Origin: Candidatus Altiarchaeales archaeon WOR_SM1_SCG
Lineage (GTDB): Archaea; Altiarchaeota; Altiarchaeia; IMC4; WOR-SM1-SCG
Direction of reading: 5' to 3'
Assembly: GCA_001723845.1 (NCBI GenBank)
Contig: MCBE01000110.1
Coordinates: 1-62,700, forward strand
Length of the DNA stretch: 62,700 bases
This document shows positions 10,145 through 61,520 of this stretch, piece after piece (the first letter of the stretch is position 1; every line of letters starts with the position of its first letter). The translations under genes and the position numbers were made by a program. Under the pieces are notes generated by a model. That model did not search any database. It saw only the letters and a program-made list of their open reading frames with translations, and was not told where the DNA came from.

Positions 10145-10156
10145 TTATTATTCATT

Positions 10157-11967: not shown

Positions 11968-13382
11968 TGTTTTTGGTTTCTTGCCATTTTTTCTTGCCAT
12001 TTTTGGCGAGATAGCGTATAATATGTTTTCCTGCCAATACTCTTTTTTTGGATTAAGGCATAATCTATTAATCTCGTTAATTCCCGGTTTGCAGTTCTTG
12101 CAGGAACGTTCAGTAGTTTCTCGCATTCAGTACGGGTTATTGCGCCCGTATTCTGCAAGTACATAAGAACTTTCAACTGCTTCTCCGATAGTTTAACCTG
12201 CTCCATTACTTTCTTCTCAGATTCAAACTTCTCTTTCGTTGAGAATATCTTAACCTCTGTTGTGTAATCATCTGTTGTGATTTTTGGCTGTAATGGTTTG
12301 AGAGGATGCTGTTTATGCTCTTTAATTATCTTATCCCAACCCTCGCCAACTCCTTCAATATATCTAACCCTTGACAGCACGTCTGCTATGATTTCGTTTC
12401 TGGAATGCTGCTTACTGACAATGTTATCAGGGGTTATTCCCGGAAGTAATCCGCCGGGATTGTAATATTCTATTCTATCGTCAAACATCTTTATTATTAC
12501 TTTTGACCCCGTCACCATATAGTCCCTATGAGCAGCAGCATTAACCACCAGCTCTCTGATCGAAAACCACGGGTATTCCGGGATGTCTTGTCTTTCAACC
12601 TGATATGGGAGCAGGCGCCCCATCATCGTAATATGCCCTTTTATATATCTGTCGCATTCGTCTATTTGCCTGAATAGATTACCCTTAAATTCTTTATAAT
12701 CCATCCTTTCGATTCCGATTTCCTTGCCCCCGTATCTCGCAAGAGCGATATAAGCATTTCGGAAAAAATCCTGTGGAGTTTTGCCAAATAAAATAATCCC
12801 CGCATTAGTCGGCATATCCTCTTTTATGCACCCTAACGCCCCTAATAGATTGATATGGCTGCCAACAACCTCTTTCTCTGCATATTTTTCATACCTTAGT
12901 ACAAAAAATTCTCTTACGAAATTCATATCAATGTCGTTCAAACTCGCTTCCTCACAAATTTCAGAATCAAAATGCACTCCTTTTTTCTCTAATATGATTC
13001 TCTCCAGTTCATCGGGCGGGATTACCACGTTTTCGGTTCCAACCCGTTTATATGCAATTCCATCCAGATAGTAAAGTTTGTTCTTTCCTTCTTTTACCTC
13101 AACCTCAATAAACTTCATTCCTCCGGTATCCAAAACTTTAATTTCCGGGCTCATCTCAGGTTTTATCTTCTGCCTTATTTTCTGTGATATTGACCTCAAA
13201 GTGGAGTCCGAAACCTCCTGCCCGACTACCTTCCCTCCGTGGATTCCGAAATAAACGCTGCCTCCCCTGTGGTTCAAAAACCCACATACTGCCTTCAGAC
13301 CCTTCTCTAACTGAGCCGTTGATTTCTTGAATTCTACCTTCTCGGATTCGCTATATTTTAGTAATTCATTTATTTCATTCAT
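11964..13382 (-). CDS. COG2865-type putative regulator R5 (first gene of the array)
   Basis: 472-aa ORF with the conserved N-terminus. Motifs: IRELVVNAAAHRDY...IKMFDDRIEYYNPG...IEGVGEGWDKI, then LSEKQLKVLMYLQ wHTH. Confidence 0.8.
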   Translation of the reverse strand: MNEINELLKYSESEKVEFKKSTAQLEKGLKAVCGFLNHRGGSVYFGIHGGKVVGQEVSDSTLRSISQKIRQKIKPEMSPEIKVLDTGGMKFIEVEVKEGKNKLYYLDGIAYKRVGTENVVIPPDELERIILEKKGVHFDSEICEEASLNDIDMNFVREFFVLRYEKYAEKEVVGSHINLLGALGCIKEDMPTNAGIILFGKTPQDFFRNAYIALARYGGKEIGIERMDYKEFKGNLFRQIDECDRYIKGHITMMGRLLPYQVERQDIPEYPWFSIRELVVNAAAHRDYMVTGSKVIIKMFDDRIEYYNPGGLLPGITPDNIVSKQHSRNEIIADVLSRVRYIEGVGEGWDKIIKEHKQHPLKPLQPKITTDDYTTEVKIFSTKEKFESEKKVMEQVKLSEKQLKVLMYLQNTGAITRTECEKLLNVPARTANRELTRLIDYALIQKKSIGRKTYYTLSRQKWQEKMARNQKQ

Positions 13383-23100: not shown

Positions 23101-23459
23101 CTCAGCGCGCCGAATGCACCTACATAAAGGTATCCTGTATCGTTTGCATATATATGTACAAAATAATGTTCTGACTGCTGCCTGCTTATGTCTCTTGCCT
23201 CCCCCTTATCCACCACCTCGGAGTATAACAGAACCTCAGAGCCGTTGTCCGTAATCCTGTAGAATGAAATATTAGTATTATTATTAAATGGTATGAAAGA
23301 TATAAAACCCATGTGGTTGGTAACACCCGTAACATCCGCTGTCCAGCCGTTCAGCGGGTACACCACGAACTCCGAGCCGATTAAACCGGTGTATCCTTCA
23401 GCATACTGTGCTGCCAGCACGACAAGCGCTATTAACGCGTAAAGGCGTATGTTTCTCAT
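14157..23459 (-). CDS. Giant exported surface protein (3100 aa) with many DUF11/TIGR01451-type repeats and a duplicated C-terminal module
   Basis: Signal-like N-terminus MRNIRLYALIALVVLAAQYAEG. Recurrent L.I.K......PGD.V.Y.I...N.G...AYN(V/I)T(V/L).D.LP pattern (e.g. AEPGDIVEYTITIHNPSLATAYDITISDDL). The C-terminus carries 2 copies of GWNLI...W..RW.YRSYAYGDWFGDLSEI.P.KGYW. Very rich in N-x-S/T sequons. Confidence 0.9.
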   Translation of the reverse strand: MRNIRLYALIALVVLAAQYAEGYTGLIGSEFVVYPLNGWTADVTGVTNHMGFISFIPFNNNTNISFYRITDNGSEVLLYSEVVDKGEARDISRQQSEHYFVHIYANDTGYLYVGAFGALRSPPATEGRFLSDEFIIHWPDYNAGPWDLSYSPQAVDICTSHNGTVTVTIMPINASTGEESQFSGLPAGNIIFNITGNGVLEDVVCRHVNVAPTGNSSPGLNSTTAIITASCGEVHIIQHLHHIDTMNWLGAYDTGLLLGKHYVFGVGYASASTATYYVGVNVFNPSDNSADCTFSCNQSSRVDDPTHTFTVLLPGSIIEDTLTILPHTSGYLESSGYNPSATPPPHCRLNCTEDISAVAGGMSNVHSFDSPSASPSEFHKNHLYSRTPPVGYGDKSFEFPFFMHYNFNDVAAHGGEVGGASWTWYQVDCYPPTVMTFNHSSTVCFNRGDTTEYAYNYVGGTLNYPLGFQAVNTTIILYNNQSVASNMTVSCTTASSVQNPGTGIYTLTNCQSMYSGDSANTYNATINITGMNMTALITGGNTLTLWANNNTVGYTFGFFLDGRIQLRWVNTQSGGVSCLHSFILNSRGMIHMSGTDGVYANGSLDGSWGRDTGLRFTSDKPVKPYRIASSPCSNSPIESVSPYLITNLEVSDTALLVGDNTNITGNVTNVGAKAADYVFVDHTIPQELKFYINTLRIWFLHNDYGKQEITDNVTIVFDVNDSCEPEDIHEAFNASTPDPIVCIREVEVPGSTLPWPETHIYFYLGTLGGTGGAEATYIGETLGFTYETHLRYINPDGFVRPALDVDYNYCSPYATDVRNSTIHEEVAITTPNVWIEKSVGPRVVLNESDMEVRLTFGDLNPLIYMVNVTLLDYYTYTGGLNITYLCNKNATYTRYNRTTGLPVTGYDNVTLNVSGVTCPSADNKSEFTVINISYITNSYLRNISRLSDNEIKFTLHANDSRLGNLTNCVNITYQAITYNETTWEILTNHNSTGQVCFGFASVESSGIEKDMADSEGNLASENGSTIVFTVGETGKIFINFSSIQNFTWDYMDVGDDLPQFLNYTGYANITIRNSTDPNYPNGVWGIGEKNWNWTNLYIQTHDPVDYLGKQRLMWTLLEVGNMTNWLLEIEVQAIDMFNGTASNWTIEDLNYGFMHGVYFSEEIFPFATPVFVIQFYPSLPGMNITKTITNMTRNYENGSGYPGGPLEPGDYADYSILVTNTGNVTFYNLTVWDEMPINTTLIAWTNYTTSNGSVTNYSIGRIYYWNITDGTLEPGEYWQINFTLYVHSNASFVENNTANVCADALVGETSCLSYTTPEIPVVHPNLTIEKYVGDWQELITAEPGDEFNFTIIIENPSHAHAYNVTLNDTLPPWFRYANKSYIVNYSGNDILIGEGNVSVGRTVSVGQNITWNIDWYSEMWHSGYSKFLVPTNFTNVLEPGENITIKFTVHVMSNATPLINTNWACTNGTDNPAEPPWGLIPEGGGHICDYAQVEVHHPELTLTKTGNATDAEPGDIVEYTITIHNPSLATAYDITISDDLQHGFRLISNGTLTFWNGTVMNITINETLNETNPPAGSTIYWNYTIPYIPPTKSVTLIYNTSVTSDAKCGINIVTVNYHDGDGTQKPYLQDIWEVCPIWRGILTVDKMSIDSLSYPGNNVTYEIILGNSGDGTLYNITLNDTLPGGWEYENNIINLTNSTCNVTHNGSHFIVTGNLSAGAVCRFRYDVSVPGLECFGEYYNYIDAYAYDSNGTILNASSYASTDIVSDVILDVSKNIAGALRYEPGDIIEFIINVSSRGNTTIYDVTVNDTLSIGLEFINCTNASGNEVTTSTTGTPYAGQSVNFSAGNISGNSYKIFYIRANITEDAFEGTNINKVVASGNGPCEPEITDTDFASFAVGIPKLEVHKWADSGSMEPGETMTYHVSIENTGTGTAYNITVTDTLTGMSYVSGSSVFNGSGINDPEESGNTLFWNSTNLNTNLTPGSSVILDFNLTTQTGNCEINMGIDEVYASASNGLENIVSIPDSVEVLIVHPFIEVTKYANVTKAEVGDLINYAIIISNPGQADAYNVIVTDIFQQGFTYISSSPEGDNDSVTNTVTWNLSSLEKNSSITIKCTAQATANTTTPPGVNLVTAAARDFAGCSLVNATDAWSITVYHPAVQVRKHVNISEAQPGDILGYEISVFNPSEALAYNVSVYEFNQTGFYPENWEAGVYELRSNGFKEWLIPLGTINITNATVNRMGIDEIALYFDLSTISNENTIINGNLASYGGITIKFNMTAGANSESGCDEAWALGHYYDNENASSDFDRECVIINHPYLDIEKFSDISTASPGDIVNYEIRITNPNSAKADAKIHGITDDVQDGHTVTSNGTGVLTRTGGSTVDYNFTVNSTMGSVEFTPDAVITLSPGEELILYFNTSVSSGADIRGCDIASYNATDMMNNSIIKKYAGKCVAVLKPGVGIEKLSSITTAEPGSIVEFTLIFENDGESTLYNVTVNDTMSPGWEFLEVTQSITGMNESEQSSAGSSTNNIIIFGNITLNAGEKKTIKYTAIVTDNASGGINENCANITGYDNTNTGYTDEYCISITVYKPALEIVKDVSQHDVEPGSEPLITIIIENPTYATVYNITITEFLPRGFNYTDGTAKLDGRKISDPNWTGIREFECGSNDTGQLNLTWNWTNTNFTDTNTEALVVIPPKTTRILTFRVHVKCNVQNTTFNNTVNVSGVTGNGSQVGPNSTSFEMRGYIADAELYKYASTNSPTFFEYIDYMVVIWNNPAGANIAPLTLADTMPPYIKYVPGYAYVGDLKIEPTVCGDYTDKAAGNYTAQYGGNCSHFHGELLDGNSGDLFNVTGEQTGDGMGEILFWNLSKWLFLTPGQQVSIKYRAQVIPGVGSTARNNVTLSYLDPEHPELCPDCEFNISSSTVIAISGCIDCINSTELNYTLKLEKGWNLISIPIQPDDTSILSILEPIQGKYIDVAAWNNRWQYRSYAYGDWFGDLSEIEPKKGYWLNMKEADNLTISGKTINEFNITLYRGWNLIGWPSTSAFPVQNLTLTYIDLATWEGRWNYRSYAYGDWFGDLSEIKPGKGYWINIPRNDTIAA

Positions 23460-34323: not shown

Positions 34324-37300
34324 CTATTTAACTTCAATTTCTGCACCCTTGACTTCGCCCTTAACCTCCGGTTTGTAGTACGAGTATGCCTTGCTGTCAG
34401 GAATCTGCGCTTTCACCGGGAATTTTGCAATCATCTTGAATTCAAACGAAAGTTCCTCGCCTCTCTGAAGGTCGTTTACATAGATTATCACTTTTCTTCC
34501 TGCAATCTCGTATCTTGTTATTCTTTTATCATCAAGAAGGTCGTCAAGTGTTCCCGTAACAGGGGCAAAGCCCGTTGGAACACCGACGTCAATAAGCATC
34601 ATTCCCGTTGAATCTGAAAGCCCGGTGTATTCTGTTCTGACTTTAACTGAAATCATGTCATTAACTTCAATACCTTCTGTTTCATATTCAACTTGAAGTT
34701 CAAGGTCTGTTTTCAAAGGCATATCGGGAAGCACGACATTGAATTTTTTAACGACCTGGTAATTTATGTCGCCTTCTCCTTCAAATTTTAATTCAATTTT
34801 TTCAACTCCAATGGGTGCTTCAATTACCTGGAAGACATCAAAGTTTCCTGAATTAATAATAAATTTCTTAATTTCCTTACCATCAGCAAGCACGGAAATT
34901 TCAGCATCAACTTCCCTCCCCTGCATAACAGCAGCAGTAATAAGCGCCCTAAAAGCCATAACAGTATCCTGCGTACTTGAAAACCCGCCCTGCGAGTTTC
35001 TCTGCGCTGAAATCCATTTTACGGCATCGCTTGCACGAGCATCCTTTACCTCCATTAATGCAAGAGAGGCATAAGCTGTTATTTCAACATTCTGGCTGCT
35101 TACAGGAACAGGCATGTACTTGTACCTTGGTGCCGGGGGCTTTACGGTGCTTTCCCAGTAAATCCCGTTTTCATCCTCTTTTGCAAGATTCATAAGCATT
35201 TTGAGTGCATCATCTGCTTTATCGCTTTTCAGCTTATAGAGCGCGAGAGTTGAGATTGCAAGAGCATAAGAGTCATCCTTGTTTTCATCGAGGTTATCTT
35301 CAAGGTATTCTCCTGCCGCATTTAAGACACCAGTATCTGTGTTCCCGTATTCCGCAAGCGCAAGAACAGTAAATGCAGTTAATGTGTATTTTCCTGAAAC
35401 GCCGCCCATCATGTCGGTATGGCAGACAAAGCCGATTGTGTCCCATGAGCCGTCATCGTTCTGGTGATCAGATATCCACTGCGCTGCCTCATCAAGGACA
35501 TTCTCGTCAATTTCTTTAACTTCACGGGCTTCGCTAAAAGACATAAGGACGTAGTCCGTAAGCCATAAGCTTCCCGATTCATCTCTCTCTCCGAATGCAG
35601 AGAAACTCCCGTCTTTGTGCTGGAATGTAAGTTCACGCTGGTAGCCTGTGTTTATGAAAATTTCCGTCTTTGCCTGTATTTCCGGGTTTATCTGCTCGGT
35701 TGCCTTTAGATATTTTAAGATTAAGACATCGGGTACGAACATCATCATGTTCTGCTCCCCACATCCGTAAGGCATACCAAGAAGGTTTTCGACGCCGTTC
35801 ATCTGCTGACCAACGATGCTCGGCGCAATGCTTACAAGCACCTTGTCTGAATCGGGAACTATAAAATCAGGCATTTTAACATCAACCGACACATCGCTGT
35901 TGTCTTTACTGAGTATCCCGTTTTCAACAATCTCCCTTTGTGTCCCTTCCGGCTCCACGATAATTGTTTTTTTAATTGCATCAGCCCTTTGTGTTGTTCT
36001 TGCGATTATATCAAATTCCTTGGTCCCGACTTTCTCAGGCGCCACTTTAAATTCCACCGAACTCACGCCGTTTCCTGCAACTGTAATTTCCTTGTTTGCA
36101 TCATCCAGCAACTTGAACCAGTCACCTTTTTTCAAATCAATGAAGACTTTTTGTGAATCATTTAAATAATTATAAATTATTATTTTTATTGGAAATTCTT
36201 CCCCACGAGTTACGGAATAAGGAATGTCCGAGTCAACAAAGAAATCCTGGAATACGACAAGCTCTGCATCGCTCATTCCGATACCTTCCTCTGATGAGGA
36301 AACTGCGTGCATTTTCCATGTCGTGATGCTGTCAGGAACGTTTAGCTTGACTTCTGCAACTCCTTTTGAGTTTGTGACAAGCATCGGGTCCCAGTACCAT
36401 GTTTCGGGGAAAAACTGGCGGACCCTGGAAGGTTCCTGCAATTCTTCGCCGCCATCGTCACCTGTCAAATCCGATTTCATTGCAGCCTGTGGAGCGGGTG
36501 GCATTGCATTATCTTCAAGAGCCATTTCCATTACTTCACCTCTAGGGAATCCACCTCCGCCGCCTTTACCCCACATATCCTCCTGCTTCTGCCCTTCGGG
36601 AACAGTTAAATTCTTTGAACTGATTACCTGTATGTTGCTTTCATCAAGAATATCCTTTGAACCCTTGGTTTCATAAGGCATGCCTCTCCAGTCAACAGCC
36701 GGCGGATGTATTTCAACCTGCGGATCCATGAATCTTTTCTCCAGTTCGTCAAAAACCTGGTGGAGATTCAAGCGTCCTTCAGCAAGTGCATAAACTGATT
36801 CGTCAACGATTCCAACACCAATCATTGAAACCGTCTCTGAATTAACATTAAATTTTATTTCAATTTCCTCGCCCGGCTCTGCCTGCTCTTTACTGAATTT
36901 TGCTTCAAGATTCACGGGAAATTCCGCTTTTGTCTTGAACGGGAGCGTGTCTGCTGAAACCTCGTTGTTCGGGTTTACCTGGTATGCGACAATTTTTGCC
37001 TGGTTGTTTTTCGCAATAAGCGGGGTAATTTTAAATTTAATTGTTTTTGTATTCTCCTCGTTCTCGGCGGTTCCTGAAAAAACAGTTCTCCCGCTTCCGA
37101 CAATGTCATAGTAAACCGTTGACTTGCCTGTGCTGTAAACATTAAAGCTGACCTCATCGCCGACATTCGGAACGCCGGTACTGGTCTGGATAATGTGAAT
37201 AAAATTTGATCCGGGGGAGTATGCTGCAGAAAGCGGAAGTTCTATCTCGGTTTTCCCTGTTTTTGCGGTTATTGAAACGCCGGATATATCTTCCGGTGCT

Positions 37301-38646
37301 TCAAGCGTTATAATATTTATTCCGTTCTCTGTCTTTACTTCCCTGGTTTCCTTTTTCAGGTCTTTATCATCATAATAAAATTCATCCCCTGTTTTATAGG
37401 TTATTTCCAGTTCAACGTCCTTGTCCAGCGGATTCCCGTCAGGGTCTTTTGTGACGACAAGAAGCTGGAATAAAAGTCCCGGCTTAACCGCTCTTGAATC
37501 CGAAATTAATTGTAAAATTGTATCTGTTTCAGTGATCTTCAAAAGCTTTGTTGTTTTCTCCTCATGCCCTCCGGTGTCCGTTACAATAACGTTAAGAAGA
37601 AGGCTTCCCGCGCCGCCCGCGCCGAAAGTTCCCGACACGTACTCAACGGGCTTTAATGTGAACTCCTTTTTGCCCTCGTCATCTTTTGAAATGTCTGCTT
37701 CGAATGTTGTGTATTTGCTCCACTCGCCAACGTAACGGTAAGCATCAATGCTTAATTCTCCTTCAACAGGTTTCCCGAAAAAATACTGCGCATCAATTAC
37801 TCCTTTAATTTCCTCGTCAACCAAAAACCATTCCTTTGGCAGGTCTAAATTTATTTTAAATTTCGGAAGCACATACTTCTCAACCCTGACATCGAGAGTT
37901 TCCTTGCTCTGCGAGCCCTCAATATTTGCGTTAATTTTCCATGTCCCGAAGTTAAGCTCTGTTGCAAGAGGAAGGTCGAATGCCGTAACGCCTAAAATGT
38001 TTGTTTTTTCTGTTTTCTTGAAAATCTTAATTCCTTTCGCATCCTTGATTTCAATTACAACGTTTCTCTCAAGAGGATGCAAATTGTTGTTAACGACAAG
38101 AATTCTCCCCTGTATTGTCTGACCCGGCTTGTAGATGGGCTTGTCGGTTTCAATGAAGACTGCTGCATCTTCTCTTACTTTTACCTCTCCTTCCAGTGTT
38201 TTTGTGCCATCTTCAAATATGATCTCGTGATTACCCGGCTCAAGTTCCTCGGGAACGACAAATGAAACCACGATTTCTCCTTTTTCTGTTGTCTGGGTTT
38301 CAAACAACTTGGTTTTGTTCTCGGATGACATAAAAACCTTAACGCACTTGTTAACCGGCTTTCCTTCATCATCTTCCGTTCTTATCGTCACTGATGATTC
38401 ACTGCCCCGAAACATTAATTTGGGTGCGGTTATCGTGTATTCGGCGTCAATGGAACTTGTTTTATCACAGGGAACGGGTTCGTTCGTAGGAGAGTACTCC
38501 AATTCGGTTGGAAGCGGCTCCGGCTCTAACGGCGGCTTTTTTTGCTCTTCGATGCAGCCGCCTAAAAGTATAATTGAAATTGCAAATACTGTTAAAACAG
38601 TTAATAAATTCATTGTCCCTTTTAAATTTTTGTTTTTGGTTTTCAT
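34324..38646 (-). CDS. Alpha-2-macroglobulin family protein (1440 aa) with an intact thioester motif
   Basis: GMPYGCGEQNMMMF (CGEQ thioester). Lipobox-like LLGGCIEE after the signal segment. Its length and repeated beta-sandwich (MG-like) segments are typical of bacterial A2M. Confidence 0.85.
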   Translation of the reverse strand: MKTKNKNLKGTMNLLTVLTVFAISIILLGGCIEEQKKPPLEPEPLPTELEYSPTNEPVPCDKTSSIDAEYTITAPKLMFRGSESSVTIRTEDDEGKPVNKCVKVFMSSENKTKLFETQTTEKGEIVVSFVVPEELEPGNHEIIFEDGTKTLEGEVKVREDAAVFIETDKPIYKPGQTIQGRILVVNNNLHPLERNVVIEIKDAKGIKIFKKTEKTNILGVTAFDLPLATELNFGTWKINANIEGSQSKETLDVRVEKYVLPKFKINLDLPKEWFLVDEEIKGVIDAQYFFGKPVEGELSIDAYRYVGEWSKYTTFEADISKDDEGKKEFTLKPVEYVSGTFGAGGAGSLLLNVIVTDTGGHEEKTTKLLKITETDTILQLISDSRAVKPGLLFQLLVVTKDPDGNPLDKDVELEITYKTGDEFYYDDKDLKKETREVKTENGINIITLEAPEDISGVSITAKTGKTEIELPLSAAYSPGSNFIHIIQTSTGVPNVGDEVSFNVYSTGKSTVYYDIVGSGRTVFSGTAENEENTKTIKFKITPLIAKNNQAKIVAYQVNPNNEVSADTLPFKTKAEFPVNLEAKFSKEQAEPGEEIEIKFNVNSETVSMIGVGIVDESVYALAEGRLNLHQVFDELEKRFMDPQVEIHPPAVDWRGMPYETKGSKDILDESNIQVISSKNLTVPEGQKQEDMWGKGGGGGFPRGEVMEMALEDNAMPPAPQAAMKSDLTGDDGGEELQEPSRVRQFFPETWYWDPMLVTNSKGVAEVKLNVPDSITTWKMHAVSSSEEGIGMSDAELVVFQDFFVDSDIPYSVTRGEEFPIKIIIYNYLNDSQKVFIDLKKGDWFKLLDDANKEITVAGNGVSSVEFKVAPEKVGTKEFDIIARTTQRADAIKKTIIVEPEGTQREIVENGILSKDNSDVSVDVKMPDFIVPDSDKVLVSIAPSIVGQQMNGVENLLGMPYGCGEQNMMMFVPDVLILKYLKATEQINPEIQAKTEIFINTGYQRELTFQHKDGSFSAFGERDESGSLWLTDYVLMSFSEAREVKEIDENVLDEAAQWISDHQNDDGSWDTIGFVCHTDMMGGVSGKYTLTAFTVLALAEYGNTDTGVLNAAGEYLEDNLDENKDDSYALAISTLALYKLKSDKADDALKMLMNLAKEDENGIYWESTVKPPAPRYKYMPVPVSSQNVEITAYASLALMEVKDARASDAVKWISAQRNSQGGFSSTQDTVMAFRALITAAVMQGREVDAEISVLADGKEIKKFIINSGNFDVFQVIEAPIGVEKIELKFEGEGDINYQVVKKFNVVLPDMPLKTDLELQVEYETEGIEVNDMISVKVRTEYTGLSDSTGMMLIDVGVPTGFAPVTGTLDDLLDDKRITRYEIAGRKVIIYVNDLQRGEELSFEFKMIAKFPVKAQIPDSKAYSYYKPEVKGEVKGAEIEVK

Positions 38647-50435: not shown

Positions 50436-50891
50436 ATGAAAACGGACATTGTTTATTACAAGGATGCCAGTGACATGTCAGAAGTTGATGATAATTCAAT
50501 CCAATTAATTATAACCTCTCCACCATACTGGAATGTCAAGGACTATTCCATGGATGGTTACCAGAAAAACAATAATTCGGGAAAGATTGAAGGACAGATT
50601 GGGGATATTAATGATTATGAAGAATATTTAAACGCCATGACCGAGGTGTGGAATGAATGCGAGCGGGTTTTAAAACCAAACGGAAAATTATGCATTAATA
50701 CCCCCTTAATGCCTGTTCCAAAGAAACAATTAATCACACATTACAACCGGCATATTGTGAATATCAATTCCGGGATTGAATATGAGATTTTGCATAAAAC
50801 AAAACTGTTTCTTTACGACCTTTATATATGGAACAGAACAAATCCGAGTAAAGCATTGATGTTTGGACGTTGCTCGTATTCAATTAATTAA
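50436..50891 (+). pseudogene. Truncated beta-class N4/N6 DNA methyltransferase (N-terminal half only)
   Basis: Motif IV TSPPYW near the N-terminus and the KPNGKL segment are present. The ORF stops at ALMFGRCSYSIN, where intact enzymes continue (FGSYPYP...) to the AdoMet-binding F.G.G motif. No continuation appears in any frame before the next gene. Confidence 0.6.
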
Positions 50892-52363: not shown

Positions 52364-52606
52364 ATGGCAAACAACACTCAACCAAAATATTCAGGATTAA
52401 TGAATCAAACCCTGCGTTATATGGGTTGGGTTAGGGATAACCTATCTAAACCACGGGATGTCAGAGGCATTATTGTCGGTAGAGAGGTTACGGAAAAATT
52501 AAAATACGCTAAAAAAGGCATGCAGCCAGCAGAGCATCTTATAAAATTAATTGAATTTGATGTTGATGTATCCGGGAGCATGTCTGTTGTTGGAGAAAGT
52601 AATTAA
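52364..52606 (+). pseudogene. C-terminal fragment of a NucS/DUF91-like PD-(D/E)xK protein (80 aa)
   Basis: NQTLRYMGWVRDNL...VRGIIVGREVTEKLKYA...IKLIEF matches the segment that follows the catalytic E.K strand in NucS-like nuclease domains (Q..rYm.wv......vrGiiva). The catalytic part is missing. Confidence 0.35.
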
Positions 52607-54039: not shown

Positions 54040-56646
54040 TTACCCATTAACAATCTCAATCAAAACCCCCCCGTACTTCTCAAGCTTCGCCTCTCCCACA
54101 CCGTAAATCTCCTTCAACTCCTCTTTTGTCCCCGGCTTCTTTCGCGCAACCTCTCTGAGTGTTTTATCCTGGAAAATACGGTACGGTGGAACATTATTCC
54201 TGTCTGCGAGTTTTCTTCTCCACATCCTTAATTTTTCAAACAATTCAGTTTCCCCTGGAGTTAGCATATCTTCTGCTTCTTCATGCGGCGTCTTTTGTTT
54301 TTGCTCTTTCTCCTGATATTCTTTAATTTGAGATAATGTATCAACTTTAATCTCCTCTTTCTTCAGTATCGCAAGCCCCCCCGTTCGTGAAACCTTAACC
54401 GTCGGGTACATAAATTCCCCTGCTCTTTCAAGATAGTCCTTCTGAAGGAGTTCGTCAATGACCGCTGCAATATCCGCGGCTGTGAAATTACCAAGGACAC
54501 CGTAATTTTTACTTTCATTATAGCCGCCTTCTCCAATGAATTTCGCGTTTGAGCCGGTCAGAATACCTGCGATTTTATGCACACCTAATCGTTCGTTGAA
54601 TTCATAGACGCATTCAAGAACCGCTAAGGGAATTAAATTTTTATCTTCAATTTTCTCAATCACAGGCATTGAGTTTATCTTCACTTCCTCAACCTTTATT
54701 CTCTCAAAACTTTTTTTCACTTTCTCCTCCCTGATTTTATTTTCCGCTTCTTGAAGTGCTTTCACGACAAAATCCTTTTTGAAGAATTCACTGCAAATTT
54801 TCTCTGCTTCATCCGTAATCTCAATGTCGTAGTCCGGCGGAAGACACTTTCTGTATTTCGGGTAAGCAAACCGCGCATCCATTAGAATAACGGCTCCCAC
54901 ATCGTTTTCGCTCCTGATGCCGCGCCCTGCCGCCTGCATTACCTTGCTTATCGCAGGATAGATGTAACCGTAGAGTATGCCTTTCTCCTGTCCGAATTTA
55001 TTAATGTAGTAGTCCCTCTGGTTTTTAACTTCAAGAGTCGGCGGGCTTAAAGGAAGACCTGCGATAATTACCGCGCGAAGAATATTATTTTTATAATCAA
55101 TACCCTCGGAGAGTGAGCCTGCCTGCACACCGAACAAAATTTTATTGGAATTAATTTTTAATTTATTGAATAATTTATTTTTAGCGGCTTTACTCATCCG
55201 CCTTTCCTCAAGAATGATGTCCTCTGATTTATCCTCTATTTTCGCATCGGAATTGTATTGAAATTTACGGTAAACATCATCCATCAACGAATACGACGGG
55301 AAAAAAACAGCAGCATTACCGCCGACTGCATCATGTATCTGTGAAATCTTTTTCGCCATCTCATTATACATCGAATCACTTCGCATGGAGTAAAGCGTCG
55401 TTAATCTTTTTGTTATTAACACAAGCTTGTTCTCGGAAGGAAAAGGCGACTTATACTGCTTTAGAAGCGCGTTTTTAGCACCCAATATATCTGCGTACAT
55501 TTCAACCGGGTAGAGGGTGCCTGACATCATAACAGCGGTATGAGCGCCCGAAATTATTTTTTCGCTTAAAACCGAAGGGTCAAGAAGCCGAAATGAAAGA
55601 ACAGGATTTACTTCATTCCTGTAAACCCGCGAGCAGGGAAGATTCGTATTCCATCCTTCAAGAAACTCGATGATTGATGTTAAAGGAGATTTCTCTTTTT
55701 TCTCGTGCTGCTCTTTTTCAGCGATTTCAACTTCAATTGCCTTTAATGATTCAACAAATTCCATGTAGCTAAGCCCCCCGCCTAAAACTTCCTGGAGTGC
55801 TTGCTCAATTCCTTGAGTGATTTCCTCGCGTGAAATATTTAATTCCGTATTTCCTGGTTGTGTTTCAATAAACCTGTCAAAAAACCTGCCGACGTCCCTG
55901 ATATGCCTGTGAAGCTTCTTGTCAAGCGGGCTTATTTCCTTTGCCGCCTCATCAATCAAGTTAAGTGTAAGCTCTCCTGAAAGATGGTCTCTTATCCTGT
56001 CCGGGAGGTTATGTGCTTCGTCAATAATTAAAATTAAATCATCCATTGGTTTCCCTGTTTTCTCAAGAACGGTTTCAAGAATATCCGTGAAAACATAATT
56101 ATAATCGCAGACAACAACGTCTGCTTCCGCCATCGCGTCAACCGCCGTCTTATGAGGGCATAAAACATTTTCCGCGCATAAGTCCTTAAGTTCCTCAACA
56201 TGCAAAATATTATTTAAAATCTGGTTTGTCACAGTCTTATCGCTCCTGAAATACCTGCATTTGCGGGTTTTCTGTTCGTGGATGCACATTTCATTAAAGA
56301 CTGCGTAATACTCTCTTGCAATGTCGCGGGGACACATCGCCTGCTTGGAGATTATGTCAACAACAGAAAAATTAATTTGAGATTTATTTTTATCAATTTT
56401 ATCTTTAATAAGCCGCAGGGTGTCAATAACGATTCTATGCTGGGACTGCTTTGATGTGAGAAAGAAAATAATTTTATTGTTATTCAGGGCATACTCAAGG
56501 CAGGGTGCGAGTGCGGCTGCGGTTTTCCCGATGCCGGTTGGGGCATGGGCTATTAAAGAGTTTCCGGTTTCAAGGACTGTTTCGATGTCCTTTATTAGTT
56601 CTTTTTGTCCGTCACGGATTTGGGGGAAGGGAAATAAGGAGGTCAT
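54040..56646 (-). CDS. XPD/Rad3 (DinG-family) FeS helicase fused to RecQ-type RQC winged helix and HRDC domain (868 aa)
   Basis: Walker A AHAPTGIGKT and DEAH box LIIDEAHNL. Four Cys between them (MCPRD, MCIHE, KCRYF, LCPHK) form the FeS domain. Motif VI is QAAGRGIRS. The C-terminal extension has an RQC-like part (GVHKIAGILTGSNAKFI...AVIDELLQKDYLE) and an HRDC part (LFEKLRMWRRKLADRNNVPPYRIFQDKTLREVARKKPGTKEELKEIYGVGEAKLEKYG). Confidence 0.85.
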   Translation of the reverse strand: MTSLFPFPQIRDGQKELIKDIETVLETGNSLIAHAPTGIGKTAAALAPCLEYALNNNKIIFFLTSKQSQHRIVIDTLRLIKDKIDKNKSQINFSVVDIISKQAMCPRDIAREYYAVFNEMCIHEQKTRKCRYFRSDKTVTNQILNNILHVEELKDLCAENVLCPHKTAVDAMAEADVVVCDYNYVFTDILETVLEKTGKPMDDLILIIDEAHNLPDRIRDHLSGELTLNLIDEAAKEISPLDKKLHRHIRDVGRFFDRFIETQPGNTELNISREEITQGIEQALQEVLGGGLSYMEFVESLKAIEVEIAEKEQHEKKEKSPLTSIIEFLEGWNTNLPCSRVYRNEVNPVLSFRLLDPSVLSEKIISGAHTAVMMSGTLYPVEMYADILGAKNALLKQYKSPFPSENKLVLITKRLTTLYSMRSDSMYNEMAKKISQIHDAVGGNAAVFFPSYSLMDDVYRKFQYNSDAKIEDKSEDIILEERRMSKAAKNKLFNKLKINSNKILFGVQAGSLSEGIDYKNNILRAVIIAGLPLSPPTLEVKNQRDYYINKFGQEKGILYGYIYPAISKVMQAAGRGIRSENDVGAVILMDARFAYPKYRKCLPPDYDIEITDEAEKICSEFFKKDFVVKALQEAENKIREEKVKKSFERIKVEEVKINSMPVIEKIEDKNLIPLAVLECVYEFNERLGVHKIAGILTGSNAKFIGEGGYNESKNYGVLGNFTAADIAAVIDELLQKDYLERAGEFMYPTVKVSRTGGLAILKKEEIKVDTLSQIKEYQEKEQKQKTPHEEAEDMLTPGETELFEKLRMWRRKLADRNNVPPYRIFQDKTLREVARKKPGTKEELKEIYGVGEAKLEKYGGVLIEIVNG

Positions 56647-56740
56647 TGTTAAATTAAATTAAAATTTATGGGGGATAATTGGGCGACTGGGTAAGATGTG
56701 ACATTAACATTTCATTCAAACATTCTTCCTCTGGTTAACT

Positions 56741-57496
56741 TTACTCAGATAAAACACATATTATTACTTTCATCTCTCCACTATTAGTGTTTAGCTTTGA
56801 ATTAAAAACTAAATTATTATGTTCTGTGGTGAGACGTATAGTGATATTTTCATTAGCATCAATCTTTTTAAGTAATTTTAATATAGTTTCGTGGTAAAAC
56901 GTGGTTTTATTAATATCGTTTGCTTTTGATGAAACTATATTTAAATAGGACTCTGCTTCTCCCATTACTGTTTGTCCCATGAGATATAATTTATTTTTTT
57001 CAGACCAGCATGTGGTTTTTTTAGAAAAAATAGATATTCTATTAAAACTATCCTGTAACTCTTTATTTTTTACTATAAGTTCCACATCATCTCTGATTTT
57101 TATATCTTTCCACATATATTCCGAATCGCGTAAGTCAAGAAGTCCAACAGAAAACTCGGCTTTTTTATATAACTTATCCTCAGAATCGGATTTTTCCAAA
57201 AAAATTATCTTAAGTTTTGAATCGTATTCAATTAGTATTTTTTCAGAGTTCCAACTATCAGATATTTTTTTCAAAGTATCTACATTAACTTTTAAGTGTT
57301 CTTCATCATTTGATAATTTATAATCTTCTAAAAATTTTGAGTATATTTTAAGGTTTAAAAAAAGATTCTGGTCTTTAACAGCGTTTGTGCAAATACCCTC
57401 CAGTGTAAATGAAAGAATCGCATCTTCAACTCCTGCCTCATGCAGTATTTCCATGAAGTGTTTAAATACACCCCCCTCTATACAGAATTTGAACAT
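56741..57496 (-). CDS. Divergent PCNA-like sliding-clamp protein (251 aa)
   Basis: Length and pattern align by eye with archaeal PCNA: MFKFCIEGGVFKHFMEILHEAGVEDAILSFTLEGICTNAVKDQNLFLNLKIYSKFLEDYKLSNDEEHLKVNVDTLKKI versus the P. furiosus recalled sequence FEIVFEGAKEFAQLIDTASKLIDEAAFKVTEDGISMRAMDPSRVVLIDLNLPSSIFSKYEVVEPETIGVNMDHLKKI. The second half keeps the duplicated-domain layout. Last gene of an AT-rich four-gene operon. Confidence 0.6.
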   Translation of the reverse strand: MFKFCIEGGVFKHFMEILHEAGVEDAILSFTLEGICTNAVKDQNLFLNLKIYSKFLEDYKLSNDEEHLKVNVDTLKKISDSWNSEKILIEYDSKLKIIFLEKSDSEDKLYKKAEFSVGLLDLRDSEYMWKDIKIRDDVELIVKNKELQDSFNRISIFSKKTTCWSEKNKLYLMGQTVMGEAESYLNIVSSKANDINKTTFYHETILKLLKKIDANENITIRLTTEHNNLVFNSKLNTNSGEMKVIICVLSE

Positions 57497-57499
57497 TTT

Positions 57500-58393
57500 T
57501 TAACTTTTAATTTTAAATTTTTGCTTTAGATTATCAATAAGAGGACTTATATAATTGTAAGCTAAATTTGGGATATCTTTTTTCCATTTGTAATAATTTC
57601 TCTCTTCAGCTTCTTCTAAAAATCCTGTGGAAATTCCCTGTTTTAAAACATTCTTCCATTTTTTCAGTCTTTCGTCGCGTGTTAAATGACCTAAAATAGG
57701 GTGGTATTCATAAAATTTAGTAGCTACAAAGTCAATGTCCTCAACATTAAATCTATTAATCCTCTCTGAAACACACCAATCAATTAATCTCTCTAATACA
57801 ACATAACTTATTATTTTCAGATTTGTGTGGCGAGTATAGAACAATGGTTTCAGTGGATGAGGGGGTAACGAGATGCCTGCACTTAATTTATCCTGTAATT
57901 CTTTATGTGAATGCGATCCTTCAATTAATTGAAGGATTTTAGGAGACATATTATCCTTAATTATCCATAATAGAATATTATTCTGATCACTTGAACTTTT
58001 TAAATCTGTTTCATAGTGTTGATAGTTTTCAAAATCAGTGGCTGCAACGGTCTCTATATTCTGAATGCCCGATACTGAAAATATCTCTTGTATTGATTCC
58101 TGTGAAATATTTTTGTATTTACCAATTTTTTCAACTAATTTATTTATGTCTATTCCAATTTCTTGAAAATCTATTCCATCAATTGGGCTTTTTCCATCTA
58201 AAATTATGATAACTGATTCTCCTTTATTAATTGAAATCAGGTCGGGGGTACATTCTTTGCCACCATTAAGGCATATTTTTGGGTCTGGAATGCAATCATA
58301 TTTTAATTCATATCGTATTCTGTCCAAAAAGGCATTATACACCCAGGTTACAATGTTTGAATGCCGGTCGTATGGATAAAGTGGATGACTCAT
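57500..58393 (-). CDS. Hypothetical protein (297 aa), possible N-terminal PD-(D/E)xK nuclease motif
   Basis: ECTPDLISINKGESVIIILDGKS reads as PD...(16 aa)...D-G-K, like the Hjc/NucS-type G.DiiA.k.g..l.iEvKs strand pair. 3-nt gap to the PCNA-like gene. Confidence 0.4.
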   Translation of the reverse strand: MSHPLYPYDRHSNIVTWVYNAFLDRIRYELKYDCIPDPKICLNGGKECTPDLISINKGESVIIILDGKSPIDGIDFQEIGIDINKLVEKIGKYKNISQESIQEIFSVSGIQNIETVAATDFENYQHYETDLKSSSDQNNILLWIIKDNMSPKILQLIEGSHSHKELQDKLSAGISLPPHPLKPLFYTRHTNLKIISYVVLERLIDWCVSERINRFNVEDIDFVATKFYEYHPILGHLTRDERLKKWKNVLKQGISTGFLEEAEERNYYKWKKDIPNLAYNYISPLIDNLKQKFKIKS

Positions 58394-58394
58394 T

Positions 58395-58892
58395 TTACTT
58401 TAAATTGTGGGAACTCCCCCATTTTACACGTTCTTTTATTATGCGATAAATATGGATTAAAGATAGTGGTGATGCTTTTACTGGATCGATTTTTAGTTTA
58501 CTTTCCTCTTTCGATCCATTGAAAACTAAAATCAGTTCACTTCCGTCTTTTGGATAAAATATTTTACTCATGAAAGATGATTCATTTTTAGTTATTATAT
58601 AACCGTATGTTCCAATTGCTTTTTGTCCATAGTTGAACATTGTTTCAACAAGCAGCGGGTTTATTCTATTATCCTCTTCATGAGGTATGGTGATTGTATA
58701 ATCTTCAAATTTTTCGGGGAATGTGATATCAATGCACCCTTCATCATCCTCTTCCCGTTTTATTCCAGATAAAACTTTTTTGAATGGCTTAATTTTTTCT
58801 ACTGAAATTCCACTCACATCATTATAAATCTTTTCAGTGGCTTCTAAATTGCCTCTTTTATGTTCGATAACAAAATCTTCATTTAAAGACAA
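58395..58892 (-). CDS. Hypothetical protein (165 aa)
   Basis: ORF in an operon (1-nt gap to the next gene); no recognisable motif. Confidence 0.5.
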   Translation of the reverse strand: MSLNEDFVIEHKRGNLEATEKIYNDVSGISVEKIKPFKKVLSGIKREEDDEGCIDITFPEKFEDYTITIPHEEDNRINPLLVETMFNYGQKAIGTYGYIITKNESSFMSKIFYPKDGSELILVFNGSKEESKLKIDPVKASPLSLIHIYRIIKERVKWGSSHNLK

Positions 58893-58901
58893 TTCTGATT
58901 C

Positions 58902-59567
58902 TCAGGGATTTTCAAAAGAAACTTTAAACTCTGTTTTTATAGTCTCTGTTATTCCTCTTTCTCTAAAAACTTTATTAAAAACTTCATCAAAACGATATTT
59001 AGGTGCTTTTATACTGACTGAAATTTCTCCTGGCTCAAAAAGTTGCCTTTGACTTTCTTGCATTTCATCATATATCCTTTTTGGTATTTTCGCACCCTTT
59101 GGTATGTAAAATGGATCAAATTCCATTGATCTGCGAACATTCTGGTAGTCCTTTACATATTTTTCAACTATGCCATCTAAGTCATTAGGTTCAAGCCATG
59201 CGGGTTCTAAACCAAAAATATCATTTTTTAAAATGTTCGCAAAAATGTTTCTTATATTTTTAGGCACATCTACAATAAAAGTCCATCTATCTTCCTGGCA
59301 AAATATGTGAATATCGTTACTTTCACCACTTTTTAAATCCATAGTCAATGTCCATATATCCTTATTGATTTTATTTAAATTTTTTTCGTTTATGTCTTTA
59401 GAAACTAAATATCTTTTTTTGAAATTGTTTAGTTTGCGAACATCCCTATTCAAGTAATTTAATAAATCTTCTGGTGTCTTAAGCACTGAATAGTAAGACG
59501 CTATTGAGAAGGATTTTGATTCATCTTCTGATACCATATCAAATATTTTTGACTCCACATTCACCAT
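58902..59567 (-). CDS. Hypothetical protein (221 aa), first gene of the four-gene operon
   Basis: ORF with a 9-nt gap to the next gene; no recognisable motif. Confidence 0.5.
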   Translation of the reverse strand: MVNVESKIFDMVSEDESKSFSIASYYSVLKTPEDLLNYLNRDVRKLNNFKKRYLVSKDINEKNLNKINKDIWTLTMDLKSGESNDIHIFCQEDRWTFIVDVPKNIRNIFANILKNDIFGLEPAWLEPNDLDGIVEKYVKDYQNVRRSMEFDPFYIPKGAKIPKRIYDEMQESQRQLFEPGEISVSIKAPKYRFDEVFNKVFRERGITETIKTEFKVSFENP

Positions 59568-59607
59568 TTTATAGTATTTGAATATTTTAAGTATTTAGAT
59601 ATTTATA

Positions 59608-59625
59608 TTTATTCTTTAAATTTGA
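59608..59625 (-). promoter_or_regulatory. Promoter-like motif TCAAATTTAAAGAATAAA (minus strand), 41-58 nt upstream of the 221-aa gene
   Basis: An identical 18-mer recurs at 61503-61520 upstream of the ComF-like gene. It contains a TATA-like TTTAAAGA. Confidence 0.4.
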
Positions 59626-59817
59626 ACTTATATTACTTGTCTCAAAAATTAAACTAAAATTTTCAGTGCGGAATAGTGAGACATTTGATTTTTTGTCATG
59701 TCCCATAATTCCTCGCTTCGCACTCGTCGGGGGCGTTGCCCGACAATTAAATTAAAATTCAGTTGAAATATTAGACAGAAAAATTAATTTACAAGATATA
59801 AAAAATAACGGCTTTAA

Positions 59818-60840
59818 TTATTTGTTTCGTGAAAATAAAGTTAATTTTTCCTGTATCACAGGTTTATCCTTATTCTTCTCATGGGTTAATAAATCTTTGC
59901 AGGTACTGTTTAGTTTTACTCTAATCAAATCCAGATCATCGTCGTTTTCAAATATTATGTCTGCACTTTTATCTGAAATTAATTTAGCATTACCTTCTGT
60001 TTTTTGATGGTCGGTAAATTCCTGCGTAGGTTTAAAAACAATCAGGGTGCGATTTTGTTCTTTACAAAACCTCACGGTGTGCATAGTTCCTCCTTTTATA
60101 TCTGTTTCAACGACAAAAATGCCCAGGGATAATCCGCTCTGGATTCTATCACGCTCAACAAAATAGATGCGAAAACTGTTTTTACCCCAGGAATATTCCG
60201 ATACAATCGCACCGTTTTTTTCAATTATTTCATCCGCAAGTTTTTTGTTTTCGGCAGGATAAACCGTGTGCAGTCCGTGGGCTAAAACAGCAATTGTTGT
60301 GCCGTTAACATCAAGCGCTCCTTTATGTGCCTGTGTATCAATACCGCTTGCAAGACCGCTTACGACAACAAACCCTTCCTTTGCAAAAACCCTGCCGAGT
60401 TTTCTTGCCGACTCTGCACCGTGTTGCGTTGGTTTTCTGGTACCGACTACTGCAATCATATTTTTTTGTGAAAGTGAATCAATATTTCCTTTAACATGCA
60501 GTAAAGCCGGCGGGTCAGGAATTTTTGCTAAATATTTTGGATACCCCGGACTTTTTCCAGATATTATTTTAATGCTATTTTCTTGTGATGTTTCCAATAT
60601 TTCCTTTGCTTTATTCCAGCATTTTTCAACTGTTTGAATGTTATCAGGTACCTTTATTTTTTTATTAATCTCATGTGCTTCTTTTAATCTGTCAAGTAAA
60701 TCCGATGGACTGCCTGGTTTAAAATCAGCGAATATTTTTAAAATTTCATCTATACTTTTTCGCCCGGTTCCTTTTATCTGTTGCAATGTTAGTATCGGTA
60801 ATATTTCTTTTGACTCCATGTTAATATGTGGTTTTTCCAA
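59818..60840 (-). CDS. dprA: DprA/Smf-family protein (DNA-processing protein A; SLOG/Rossmann fold)
   Basis: An N-terminal SAM/HhH-like part (LTLQQIKGTGRKSIDEIL) is followed by IAVVGTRKPTQHGAESARKLGRVFAKEGFVVVSGLASGIDTQAHKGAL...TIAVLAHGL...YP.EN..L...I...GAIVSEY and ETDIKGGTMHT. Confidence 0.8.
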   Translation of the reverse strand: MEKPHINMESKEILPILTLQQIKGTGRKSIDEILKIFADFKPGSPSDLLDRLKEAHEINKKIKVPDNIQTVEKCWNKAKEILETSQENSIKIISGKSPGYPKYLAKIPDPPALLHVKGNIDSLSQKNMIAVVGTRKPTQHGAESARKLGRVFAKEGFVVVSGLASGIDTQAHKGALDVNGTTIAVLAHGLHTVYPAENKKLADEIIEKNGAIVSEYSWGKNSFRIYFVERDRIQSGLSLGIFVVETDIKGGTMHTVRFCKEQNRTLIVFKPTQEFTDHQKTEGNAKLISDKSADIIFENDDDLDLIRVKLNSTCKDLLTHEKNKDKPVIQEKLTLFSRNK

Positions 60841-61468
60841 GAGCCATTGCTATTACTTCAAAAGCCCCTGCTGTTTTTAATTTATGTATTCCTGCTTCAA
60901 ATGTCGTGCCTGTCGTTGTGACATCATCCAGCAGCAGAACTATTTTATCTTCAATAATATTTTCATTTTGAACGATAAGAGACGCAATTTCTTTTTCAAG
61001 ATTTCTTTCCCCGCCAAGATGTTTCTTTGGTATGGTTTCGTTACGGCATACACACCTGGTTCCGTCAATTATCGGCGGTCTGCATAATGATTCCGCAATT
61101 GTTCTTATTCCCGATGCAGAGGTTCCTTTTGCAGAAGAAGGCATAACGCATATAACAAATTCTTCATTATTTAAAAGAATATTGCCCAGAAGCGAGTTAA
61201 AGTAATTGACGGCGTTCATATAATAGTAATATTCTCCTGATTGTTGATCTAACATTTCTTCATCTTTTTTTATGGCAAGAATCATACGGGAGAACTCATC
61301 CATCTCCCCATAGTTTCCATCTCCCTTAGGGTAATATTTACCAATAAAGAACAGGTTGGGTTTATGCTTCTTAATCCTTTCGCTGTCTTTGAATATTTTA
61401 GAAACTGCCTGATTTATCTTTTCCGTCTCCAGGTCATACGAAGAGGTGTTTGAATGAGGTGAGATCAT
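60821..61468 (-). CDS. ComF/GntX-family phosphoribosyltransferase-like protein (215 aa)
   Basis: The PRPP-binding loop KIVLLLDDVTTTGTTFEAG lies near the C-terminus, as in ComFC-type PRTases. The N-terminal Cys4 zinc finger of bacterial ComFC is absent. Overlaps the DprA ORF by 20 nt. Confidence 0.7.
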   Translation of the reverse strand: MISPHSNTSSYDLETEKINQAVSKIFKDSERIKKHKPNLFFIGKYYPKGDGNYGEMDEFSRMILAIKKDEEMLDQQSGEYYYYMNAVNYFNSLLGNILLNNEEFVICVMPSSAKGTSASGIRTIAESLCRPPIIDGTRCVCRNETIPKKHLGGERNLEKEIASLIVQNENIIEDKIVLLLDDVTTTGTTFEAGIHKLKTAGAFEVIAMALGKTTY

Positions 61469-61502
61469 CCTTAATTTTTTAGATTTAATTAAAAATTTAT
61501 TT

Positions 61503-61520
61503 TTTATTCTTTAAATTTGA
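61503..61520 (-). promoter_or_regulatory. Promoter-like motif TCAAATTTAAAGAATAAA (minus strand), 35-52 nt upstream of the ComF-like gene
   Basis: Identical to 59608-59625. Confidence 0.4.

Follow-up and report, generated by a model that had tools for sequence, protein, structure and literature searches.

A rare three-gene archaeal cassette that pairs a divergent PCNA-fold protein with a putative PD-(D/E)xK nuclease: a candidate DNA-targeting conflict module

What would bring a gene for a distant relative of the sliding clamp PCNA into a block of markedly AT-rich archaeal DNA, packed end to end with coding sequences of which one looks like a nuclease and the rest like nothing familiar? The question is posed by a locus on the minus strand of Candidatus Altiarchaeales archaeon WOR_SM1_SCG, at positions 56741-59567 of the 62,700-nt stretch of DNA that was analysed (the window). 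Sliding clamps are known as platforms for replication and repair, and in Sulfolobus and Thermococcales PCNA is a known stimulator of Hjc and NucS/EndoMS, respectively. Here, we describe the locus as a cassette of three genes, named A, B and C, and we judge the chances to be evenly balanced that it is a rare and undescribed conflict or defence module acting on DNA through a clamp-tethered nuclease.

A three-gene operon conserved as a unit

The locus and the spacer upstream of it are laid out as follows.

59568..59817, minus strand: spacer of 250 nt upstream of gene A, G+C content (GC) 0.26; presumed promoter region of the cassette
58395..59567, minus strand: gene A, 390 codons; belongs to a family of 375-439-amino acid (aa) proteins of unknown function
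58902-59567, minus strand: open reading frame (ORF) 1, 221 aa; 5' part of gene A
58395-58892, minus strand: ORF 2, 165 aa, TTG start; 3' part of gene A
57500..58393, minus strand: gene B, 297 aa; N-terminal domain (about residues 1-165) a probable PD-(D/E)xK, Hjc-like nuclease
56741..57496, minus strand: gene C, 251 aa; full-length, two-domain homologue of the PCNA (sliding clamp) fold, highly divergent

An original prediction, made from the DNA letters of the window, counted four packed genes here, and the ORFs, their lengths and the gaps between them (9, 1 and 3 nt) are as it gave them; the number of genes is not. ORFs 1 and 2 share one frame and are separated by a TGA at 58902-58904 (minus strand), a codon that reads GGA (Gly222) in five of the six metagenome contigs with the same locus (L001 and L003-L006, out of L001-L006), where gene A is an intact 390 aa. 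The TGA allele is shared only with the remaining contig, L002, a match to the window at 100% identity along 9.2 kb, and alignment places Gly222 within an N-P-G motif conserved across the A family. The two ORFs are thus a single 390-aa gene cut by an in-frame TGA, which leaves three genes rather than four, and the window carries a recent nonsense allele of gene A. Because the truncation falls at Gly222 of a conserved motif, the cassette is probably inactive in the window. Recoding of the TGA, whether as selenocysteine or by read-through, was excluded because the sister alleles encode glycine (GGA) at this conserved motif. Between L001 and an 82-86% identical variant, L007, the ratio of nonsynonymous to synonymous substitution (dN/dS) takes values of 0.14 (A), 0.15 (B) and 0.25 (C), which mark all three as real genes under purifying selection.

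The conservation of the cassette is seen most clearly from gene A. A word-index search with protein A retrieved only its two close variants (2 clusters), and an exhaustive HMMER search of 1.84 billion representative proteins added 10 further relatives of 375-439 aa at E 1e-23 to 9e-7; by this search the family comprises 11 clusters at 50% identity, those of the distant relatives holding 1-6 members each. Wherever the contig of a distant A homologue is long enough, the A gene is followed by a B-sized and then a C-sized gene with tight or overlapping junctions; the encoded proteins have the following lengths.

L011: A 402 aa, B 306 aa, C 245 aa
L013: A 406 aa, B 314 aa, C 276 aa
L014: A 407 aa, B 309 aa, C 260 aa
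L017: A 375 aa, B 305 aa, C 251 aa
L019: A 377 aa, B 278 aa, C 240 aa
L021: A 390 aa, B 320 aa, C 251 aa
L022 (Natronomonas gomsonensis YCN60): A 415 aa, B 303 aa, C 253 aa

The A-B-C order therefore recurs in at least seven other lineages, at an identity of 18-25% for A, and the downstream proteins at these distant loci align with B and C. Sizes stay within narrow bounds (375-439 aa for A, 278-320 aa for B and 240-276 aa for C), as do the junctions, which fall between -20 and +24 nt across nine loci, the exception being a 97-nt gap between B and C in L019, where B is truncated. Comparison across these lineages shows a predicted three-gene A-B-C operon that is conserved as a unit.

The proteins encoded by the cassette

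The last gene of the locus had been aligned by eye with archaeal PCNA as a highly divergent homologue, and profile comparison upholds this over its full length. Protein C matches the NCBIfam PCNA model NF002222 at E 2.7e-8 over residues 1-241 (245 profile positions), with 33.7 bits where the curated cut-off lies at 207, and NF002221 at 25.3 bits where it lies at 239; it thus falls below the curated thresholds for membership of the PCNA family, and it has no match to Pfam PCNA_N or PCNA_C at E <= 1. Searched as a single sequence against the PDB, C finds Sulfolobus PCNA1 (E 4.5e-5), and a profile of four close C homologues matches 11 archaeal PCNA sequences in the PDB, in register. When the distant cassettes are included, positions 19-246 of the C profile align with 17-250 of Thermococcus kodakarensis PCNA1 at E 1.5e-14, and the best 60 of the 77 matches of this family profile are all PCNAs; when the window-type sequences are left out, the E-value is 1e-14 and the best 60 of 92 matches are again all PCNAs. 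Since this alignment to archaeal PCNAs runs the full length of both domains, with or without the window-type sequences, we take C to be a true PCNA-fold homologue. Its identity to canonical PCNAs is about 12-20%, with no one of them closer than the others, and its place is well outside the family of PCNA orthologues. The C proteins are all acidic (pI 4.2-5.6), like PCNA.

Protein B had been credited with a TPD...DGK arrangement like that of Hjc/NucS-type nucleases, with 16 residues in between. The arrangement is there, Hjc-like and conserved, with a spacer of 14 residues (T49-P50-D51, then D66-G67-K68). In an alignment of 9-10 homologues, P38, P50, D51, W143, G159 and H161 are invariant; P50-D51 is kept in 10 of 10, the acidic residue in 9, and the lysine, and with it (D/E)xK, in 8, the (D/E)xK being preceded by a hydrophobic run at the position of strand 3. 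The catalytic signature of PD-(D/E)xK enzymes is thus found in B. Searches of Pfam, NCBIfam, PHROGs, PADLOC and the PDB gave no significant match, and the weak matches were these.

Pfam TnsA_N: E 0.023
PDB 6okh: E 0.057
ST1444 (Hjc-family structure): E 0.089, with a profile of the N-terminal domain
Pfam Hjc: E 0.1
Three Hjc structures, including 4tkk and 1hh1: E 0.7-1.9, N-terminal domain profile
R2 restriction-like endonuclease: E 0.88, N-terminal domain profile

A Uma2-like nuclease is also among the matches below threshold, all of which are PD-(D/E)xK families, and every displayed alignment sits on the catalytic motif (two Pfam alignments were not displayed). The alignment with Hjc pairs D51 with D42, D66 with E55 and K68 with K57. 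That B is a Hjc/NucS-type PD-(D/E)xK nuclease is accordingly plausible but not proven, and we call it putative. Its C-terminal half of 130 residues is helical, with conserved D, ER and W positions, and had no match in the library searches.

For protein A, sequence searches of Pfam, NCBIfam, PADLOC, PHROG and the PDB gave no significant match. With the distant relatives in the alignment, AlphaFold (AF2) returned a model with a mean predicted local distance difference test score (pLDDT) of 75 and a predicted template modelling (pTM) score of 0.78, made up of three alpha/beta modules. Foldseek found no global match to this model in the PDB (best template modelling (TM) score 0.1-0.26) or in BFVD; there were local resemblances at low TM score to TBP and TBP-like domains, the N-terminal domain (NTD) of RnlA, CENP-L, KA1 and RdgC, and clamps appeared among the matches at a probability of at most 0.15. 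By hhalign, A is unrelated to C and to B and its modules are unrelated to one another, so that there are no internal repeats, and no Walker motif was seen by eye. A second clamp subunit and a clamp loader were both considered for A and excluded on these null hhalign tests and on the lack, by eye, of a Walker motif.

Composition, mobility and neighbouring genes

The AT-richness that had been judged by eye, and from which acquisition had been suspected, is confirmed by measurement. The GC of the cassette is 0.301 against 0.399 for the whole window (standard deviation 0.036 among windows of equal length), with 0.415 for the helicase gene on one side of it and 0.363 for the gene of ShosA on the other; it is the lowest 2.8-kb stretch of the window, and the ten lowest-GC windows of 2827 nt in the 62.7 kb all overlap it. 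GC at third codon positions (GC3) is 0.24 for the cassette and 0.25 for gene C, against 0.37-0.47 in resident genes. Eight of the nine loci show this drop relative to the host contig, for example from 0.65-0.70 to 0.44 in Natronomonas and from 0.53 to 0.41-0.43 in L014; the ninth, L021, is a contig made up mostly of the cassette and lacks a clear drop. The limits of the unit are drawn by its close variants, L007 and L008, whose DNA homology with the window spans 59552..56740, that is, the three genes alone. Close variants occur in three contexts: with the Shosta pair and the helicase in the window, with DUF1805, an M50 peptidase and eIF-2beta in L007, and with a DNA methylase in L009.

The two neighbours in the window are as follows.

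59818..61468, minus strand: ShosA (DprA-like, 340 aa) and ShosT (phosphoribosyltransferase (PRTase)-like, 215 aa), a Shosta-like pair, not part of the cassette
54040..56646, minus strand: XPD-RQC-HRDC fusion helicase, 868 aa (Pfam DEAD_2, HBB, Helicase_C_2, RQC and HRDC), not part of the cassette

The original prediction had read the first pair as DprA and ComF and had offered DNA uptake as one possible role. PADLOC instead matches the pair to ShosA (E 1.4e-80) and ShosT (E 2e-22), with the Pfam domains DNA_processg_A and Pribosyltran; since a DprA-like protein with a PRTase is a Shosta-type system, the uptake idea fails. The Shosta pair is absent from every distant cassette locus, and we therefore regard it as a neighbour and not a component. 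That a Shosta-type system is present in an archaeal genome is an observation in its own right.

The helicase combines an XPD/Rad3-type core with four cysteines and, fused to it, the RQC and HRDC domains of RecQ type. It is not beside the cassette in L007, in L009 or in any distant locus, and was excluded as a further cassette component because it is not conserved with the cassette, the homology with L007 stopping at the gene ends. Its own variation is of separate note: among 80 metagenome relatives, one full-length, near-identical copy (L023) retains the C-terminal 250 residues, the copy in L082 is cut off after residue 199, and the other relatives (at most 45% identity) match residues 1 to about 622 only.

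A scan of metagenomes with the helicase allows the slot upstream of it to be compared, as it yielded two cassette-free contigs, L023 and L082, whose helicase is 94-95% identical to that of the window. In L023 the order is the 3' end of ShosA, a 171-aa HAD hydrolase (434-949) and the helicase; in L082, MetK (345-1508) lies directly upstream of the helicase, with neither the cassette nor the Shosta pair. As both contigs keep the helicase without the cassette, the helicase is resident and the upstream slot variable. The MetK of L082 is a bacterial-type S-adenosylmethionine synthetase, which is odd for an archaeon. Searches of the window for tRNA genes and Rfam families gave no matches, and no att-like direct repeats flank the cassette in the window or in Natronomonas (of at least 18 nt in the latter).

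These comparisons bear directly on the account in which C would be the organism's own PCNA, with A and B as replication factors, an account to which the full-length homology of C to PCNA and the adjacency of a repair-associated XPD-family helicase would lend themselves. C scores 33.7 bits where 207 would be needed and has no Pfam PCNA domain, and it is missing, with the rest of the cassette, from the two contigs with a 94-95% identical helicase; the GC3 of the cassette departs from that of resident genes. The genes are also sporadic and rare. Word searches of 5.8 billion proteins found 4 clusters for C and 2 for B, to set beside the 2 for A (11 by exhaustive search), and among 185,579 GTDB species-representative genomes a haloarchaeal A profile found one relative, in Natronomonas, and a B profile none. 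The possibility that C is the orthologous PCNA of the organism, or that A and B are housekeeping replication factors, had been named beforehand as what would undo the original prediction, and we now give it hardly any credence.

The surroundings of two distant copies point to mobility. In Natronomonas gomsonensis YCN60 the cassette belongs to an 8-kb island (L022 9000-17000; NZ_JACAWU010000001.1 ~122.9-130.9 kb) with a GC of 0.43-0.53 against 0.65-0.70, which also holds two tyrosine integrases, small winged helix-turn-helix (wHTH) genes, an HNH endonuclease and a weak HEPN-like protein; the cassette is positioned between the two integrase genes, and no tRNA was found in the island. The L011 copy has a split terminase gene and further phage-family genes within about 3-5 kb, in what is a terminase-bearing provirus. 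Sporadic distribution, foreign composition, variable occupancy and defence or mobile neighbours, the features expected of island cargo, are thus all found, and on this comparative evidence we consider the cassette to be horizontally transferred mobile cargo, a self-contained transferable unit as the suspicion of acquisition had implied.

Mobile cargo could also serve the element that carries it. The cassette would then be a module for the replication, recombination or repair of a mobile element, in which a PCNA paralogue would work with a nuclease of resolvase or flap type and an accessory factor. PCNA homologues do occur in archaeal viruses and integrated elements (PMC11529989), B resembles the Holliday-junction resolvase Hjc, and the foreign composition, the terminase and phage-family genes some 3-5 kb from the L011 copy and the two integrase genes flanking the Natronomonas copy are all in keeping with such a role. 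Against this, the cassette has no polymerase, primase, MCM, Orc or Rep gene beside it at any locus, and the unit that moves is exactly three genes. Several copies sit in plain chromosomal surroundings, and no relatives were found in IMG/VR scans or, by tblastn, in 50,697 phage records (INPHARED; searched with A) and 72,556 plasmid records (PLSDB; searched with A and B). In these comparisons neither mark of a viral or plasmid replication module, co-located replication genes or a place on an autonomous replicon, was seen. We regard this explanation as unlikely.

The proximity of Shosta, a system of toxin-antitoxin type, and the nonsense inactivation in one strain, which fits a costly or toxic module, would suit a further explanation, in which C is a decoy clamp that poisons replication in an abortive-infection or addiction module, with A and B as regulator and effector. 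Such a toxin-antitoxin-like system would work through mixed rings with host or viral PCNA, or through sequestered PCNA clients; C is acidic and of full length like real PCNAs, and so could compete for partners, and the cassette encodes no loader. At an identity of about 12-20% to all canonical PCNAs, however, the compatibility of its interfaces with those of host PCNA is doubtful, and if L011, L013 or similar loci are bacterial there would be no PCNA to poison. The decoy explanation is in our view distinctly improbable.

Several further features surround the cassette. In the 250-nt spacer, TATA-like runs were seen by inspection immediately before the ATG of gene A, in keeping with its presumed promoter role. 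A GC-rich hairpin (GTCGGGcaacgCCCCCGAC...) at 59711-59744, inside this 26% GC spacer between ShosA and gene A and unique in the window, could be the ShosA terminator or a remnant of an insertion boundary. An AT-rich block of 33 nt at 59593-59625, upstream of gene A, has a 79% identical copy at 61488-61520, upstream of ShosT, and may be a promoter or regulatory element common to both cargo operons. Beyond the helicase lies restriction-modification debris on the plus strand, consisting of a 151-aa N6/N4 DNA methylase fragment (50436-50891) and an 80-aa ORF (52364-52606), the latter corresponding to the 3' end of the gene for a 487-aa AlwI/NucS_C-type restriction enzyme, which L001 has in intact form (9678-11141). 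As homology between the window and L001 ends at 52405, this is a second variable region.

At other loci, the cassette of L013 stands beside a block of four minus-strand genes (3-7555) that may be another uncharacterised system. They encode a 242-aa protein, a BrxH/SngC-like helicase with DEAD, Helicase_C and MZB domains, a metallophosphatase and a protein of 1257 aa whose C-terminal region is weakly Cas1-like (E 1e-4). In L011 the terminase large-subunit gene appears to be split by an inserted protease-like gene (region 2173-4872), and the relatives of the 436-aa phrog_5990 protein encoded next to it (5360-6670) are 31-36% identical, several of them lying at the extreme ends of Streptococcus satellite-phage or prophage records, which suggests that this protein too is accessory cargo. 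Elsewhere in the window, 4008-13382 (minus strand) holds five large ORFs of 453-494 aa in a tandem array; a small ORF of 148-201 aa follows each of four, and Schlafen AlbA_2 and HATPase_c_4 domains were found in the two large proteins of this array that were scanned. The window also has two giant minus-strand ORFs, of 3100 aa (14157-23459) and 1440 aa (34324-38646), and encodes AglB/STT3, which, with the eIF-2beta gene on the contig of the 86%-identical variant L007, marks the organism as an archaeon.

A proposed mode of action and its relation to known systems

In the reading of the cassette as a clamp-tethered nuclease module, C would form a PCNA-like ring on DNA, and this ring would tether B, as a Hjc-like PD-(D/E)xK endonuclease, or activate it, or both, as archaeal PCNA does with Hjc and NucS. 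Protein A, with its possibly TBP-like or RnlA-NTD-like modules, would be the sensor, adaptor or loader that sets where and when clamp and nuclease engage. Because the cassette encodes no ATPase, we propose that the ring slips onto an invader's DNA at free ends or at branched intermediates of its replication, or that it borrows the host RFC. Ring formation, an A-B-C complex, nuclease activity, its target and a protective effect are all things that we infer. A narrower version is possible, though we lean against it, in which the cassette is a self-contained immune system that needs no ATPase and centres on a PCNA-like ring of its own, with A perhaps positioning the ring and B destroying the invader's DNA; the ring on invader DNA would license B, the host chromosome offering no free ends or branched intermediates.

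A number of findings weigh against the clamp-tethered nuclease, beginning with the nuclease itself. Where most B homologues have (D/E)xK, B of L014 reads QIV, lacking both the acidic residue and the catalytic lysine, and B of Natronomonas reads EIV, lacking the lysine; the AF2 model of B, built from a 3-sequence alignment, reached a pLDDT of 33, and the fold was not obtained. Neither A nor B has a conserved PCNA-interacting peptide (PIP) box, the cassette carries neither a loader nor an ATPase, and the part given to A as sensor, adaptor or loader is a guess from Foldseek matches of low TM score. The copy in the window has a nonsense mutation, and a rarity of 11 clusters in 1.84 billion representatives is extreme for a successful defence system. 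PADLOC-DB 2.0 gave no match to the four window ORFs at E <= 1, nor PADLOC to the distant A and B homologues at E <= 0.01. The neighbourhood comparison is also divided: the three-gene set recurs, and defence or mobile genes lie nearby in about five of eight contexts, a figure that is anecdotal and not a statistical enrichment, with ordinary neighbours in L007 (eIF-2beta, M50 peptidase, TrkH), L014 (amidase, ion exchanger) and L017.

In the databases and literature searched, the cassette is without a described counterpart, and the original prediction, too, knew of none. Open-access papers and bioRxiv preprints, whose coverage is incomplete, yielded no account of a PCNA-like clamp within a defence or island cassette, so that an earlier description is possible. 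A mobile clamp homologue with its own nuclease and a third protein would be a new build for a DNA-targeting conflict system and, if the proposal is true, the first defence system to rely on a homologue of the sliding clamp for sensing and processivity, possibly with a new rule for telling self from non-self by free ends or the topology of DNA. Protein A, modelled with confidence and without structural relatives, would be placed in a functional context and would represent a new fold family, and a system of archaeal origin would be added to a catalogue of defence dominated by bacterial discoveries. As Natronomonas gomsonensis YCN60, a haloarchaeon in culture, carries an intact copy, the hypothesis is directly testable.

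How, then, does the cassette compare with what is known? One parallel is the partnership of PCNA with Hjc or NucS (EndoMS), in which a PCNA-fold protein is likewise paired with a PD-(D/E)xK endonuclease and the clamp tethers and stimulates the nuclease. The cassette differs in encoding clamp, nuclease and a third protein within one sporadic mobile operon; C falls far below the thresholds of the PCNA family, and B, at double the length of Hjc, has an additional helical domain, no canonical PIP box and a homology to Hjc that stays below threshold (E 0.09-2). Extra PCNA-fold genes of foreign origin are themselves familiar in archaeal genomes, PCNA2 of Thermococcus kodakarensis (TK0582) being a PCNA paralogue in an integrated element. 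These element-borne paralogues are still so similar to canonical PCNA that they carry its annotation, and a role in support of replication is assumed for them. C has diverged much further, comes with A and B in every case and did not turn up in the viral and plasmid collections. Homologues of this kind are also carried by viruses, as in the example of Asgard virus PCNA (PMC11529989).

The eukaryotic 9-1-1 clamp, compared here by description, offers the likeness of a strongly diverged PCNA-fold ring that senses abnormal DNA structures and signals from them, instead of giving polymerases their processivity. Unlike the cassette, it is a heterotrimer with a dedicated RFC-like ATPase loader, and it is eukaryotic and chromosomal, with no nuclease in an operon. 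Shosta (PsyrTA) resembles the cassette in its setting, both being accessory cargo in the same variable island upstream of the resident helicase with similar promoter-proximal sequence, and differs from it in its proteins, a DprA-like antitoxin and a PRTase-like toxin that are unrelated to A, B and C. Shedu (SduA) combines a PD-(D/E)xK nuclease with a clamp-like module that encircles DNA or senses its ends, without an ATPase, and is proposed to recognise non-self by free DNA ends (bioRxiv 10.1101/2023.08.10.552762). The two systems share no sequence similarity, and the PADLOC Shedu models did not match the cassette; Shedu is a single protein whose clamp comes from its own N-terminal domains and is not related to PCNA, in contrast to the three proteins described here. 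In how the cassette might work, Shedu is nonetheless its closest analogue.

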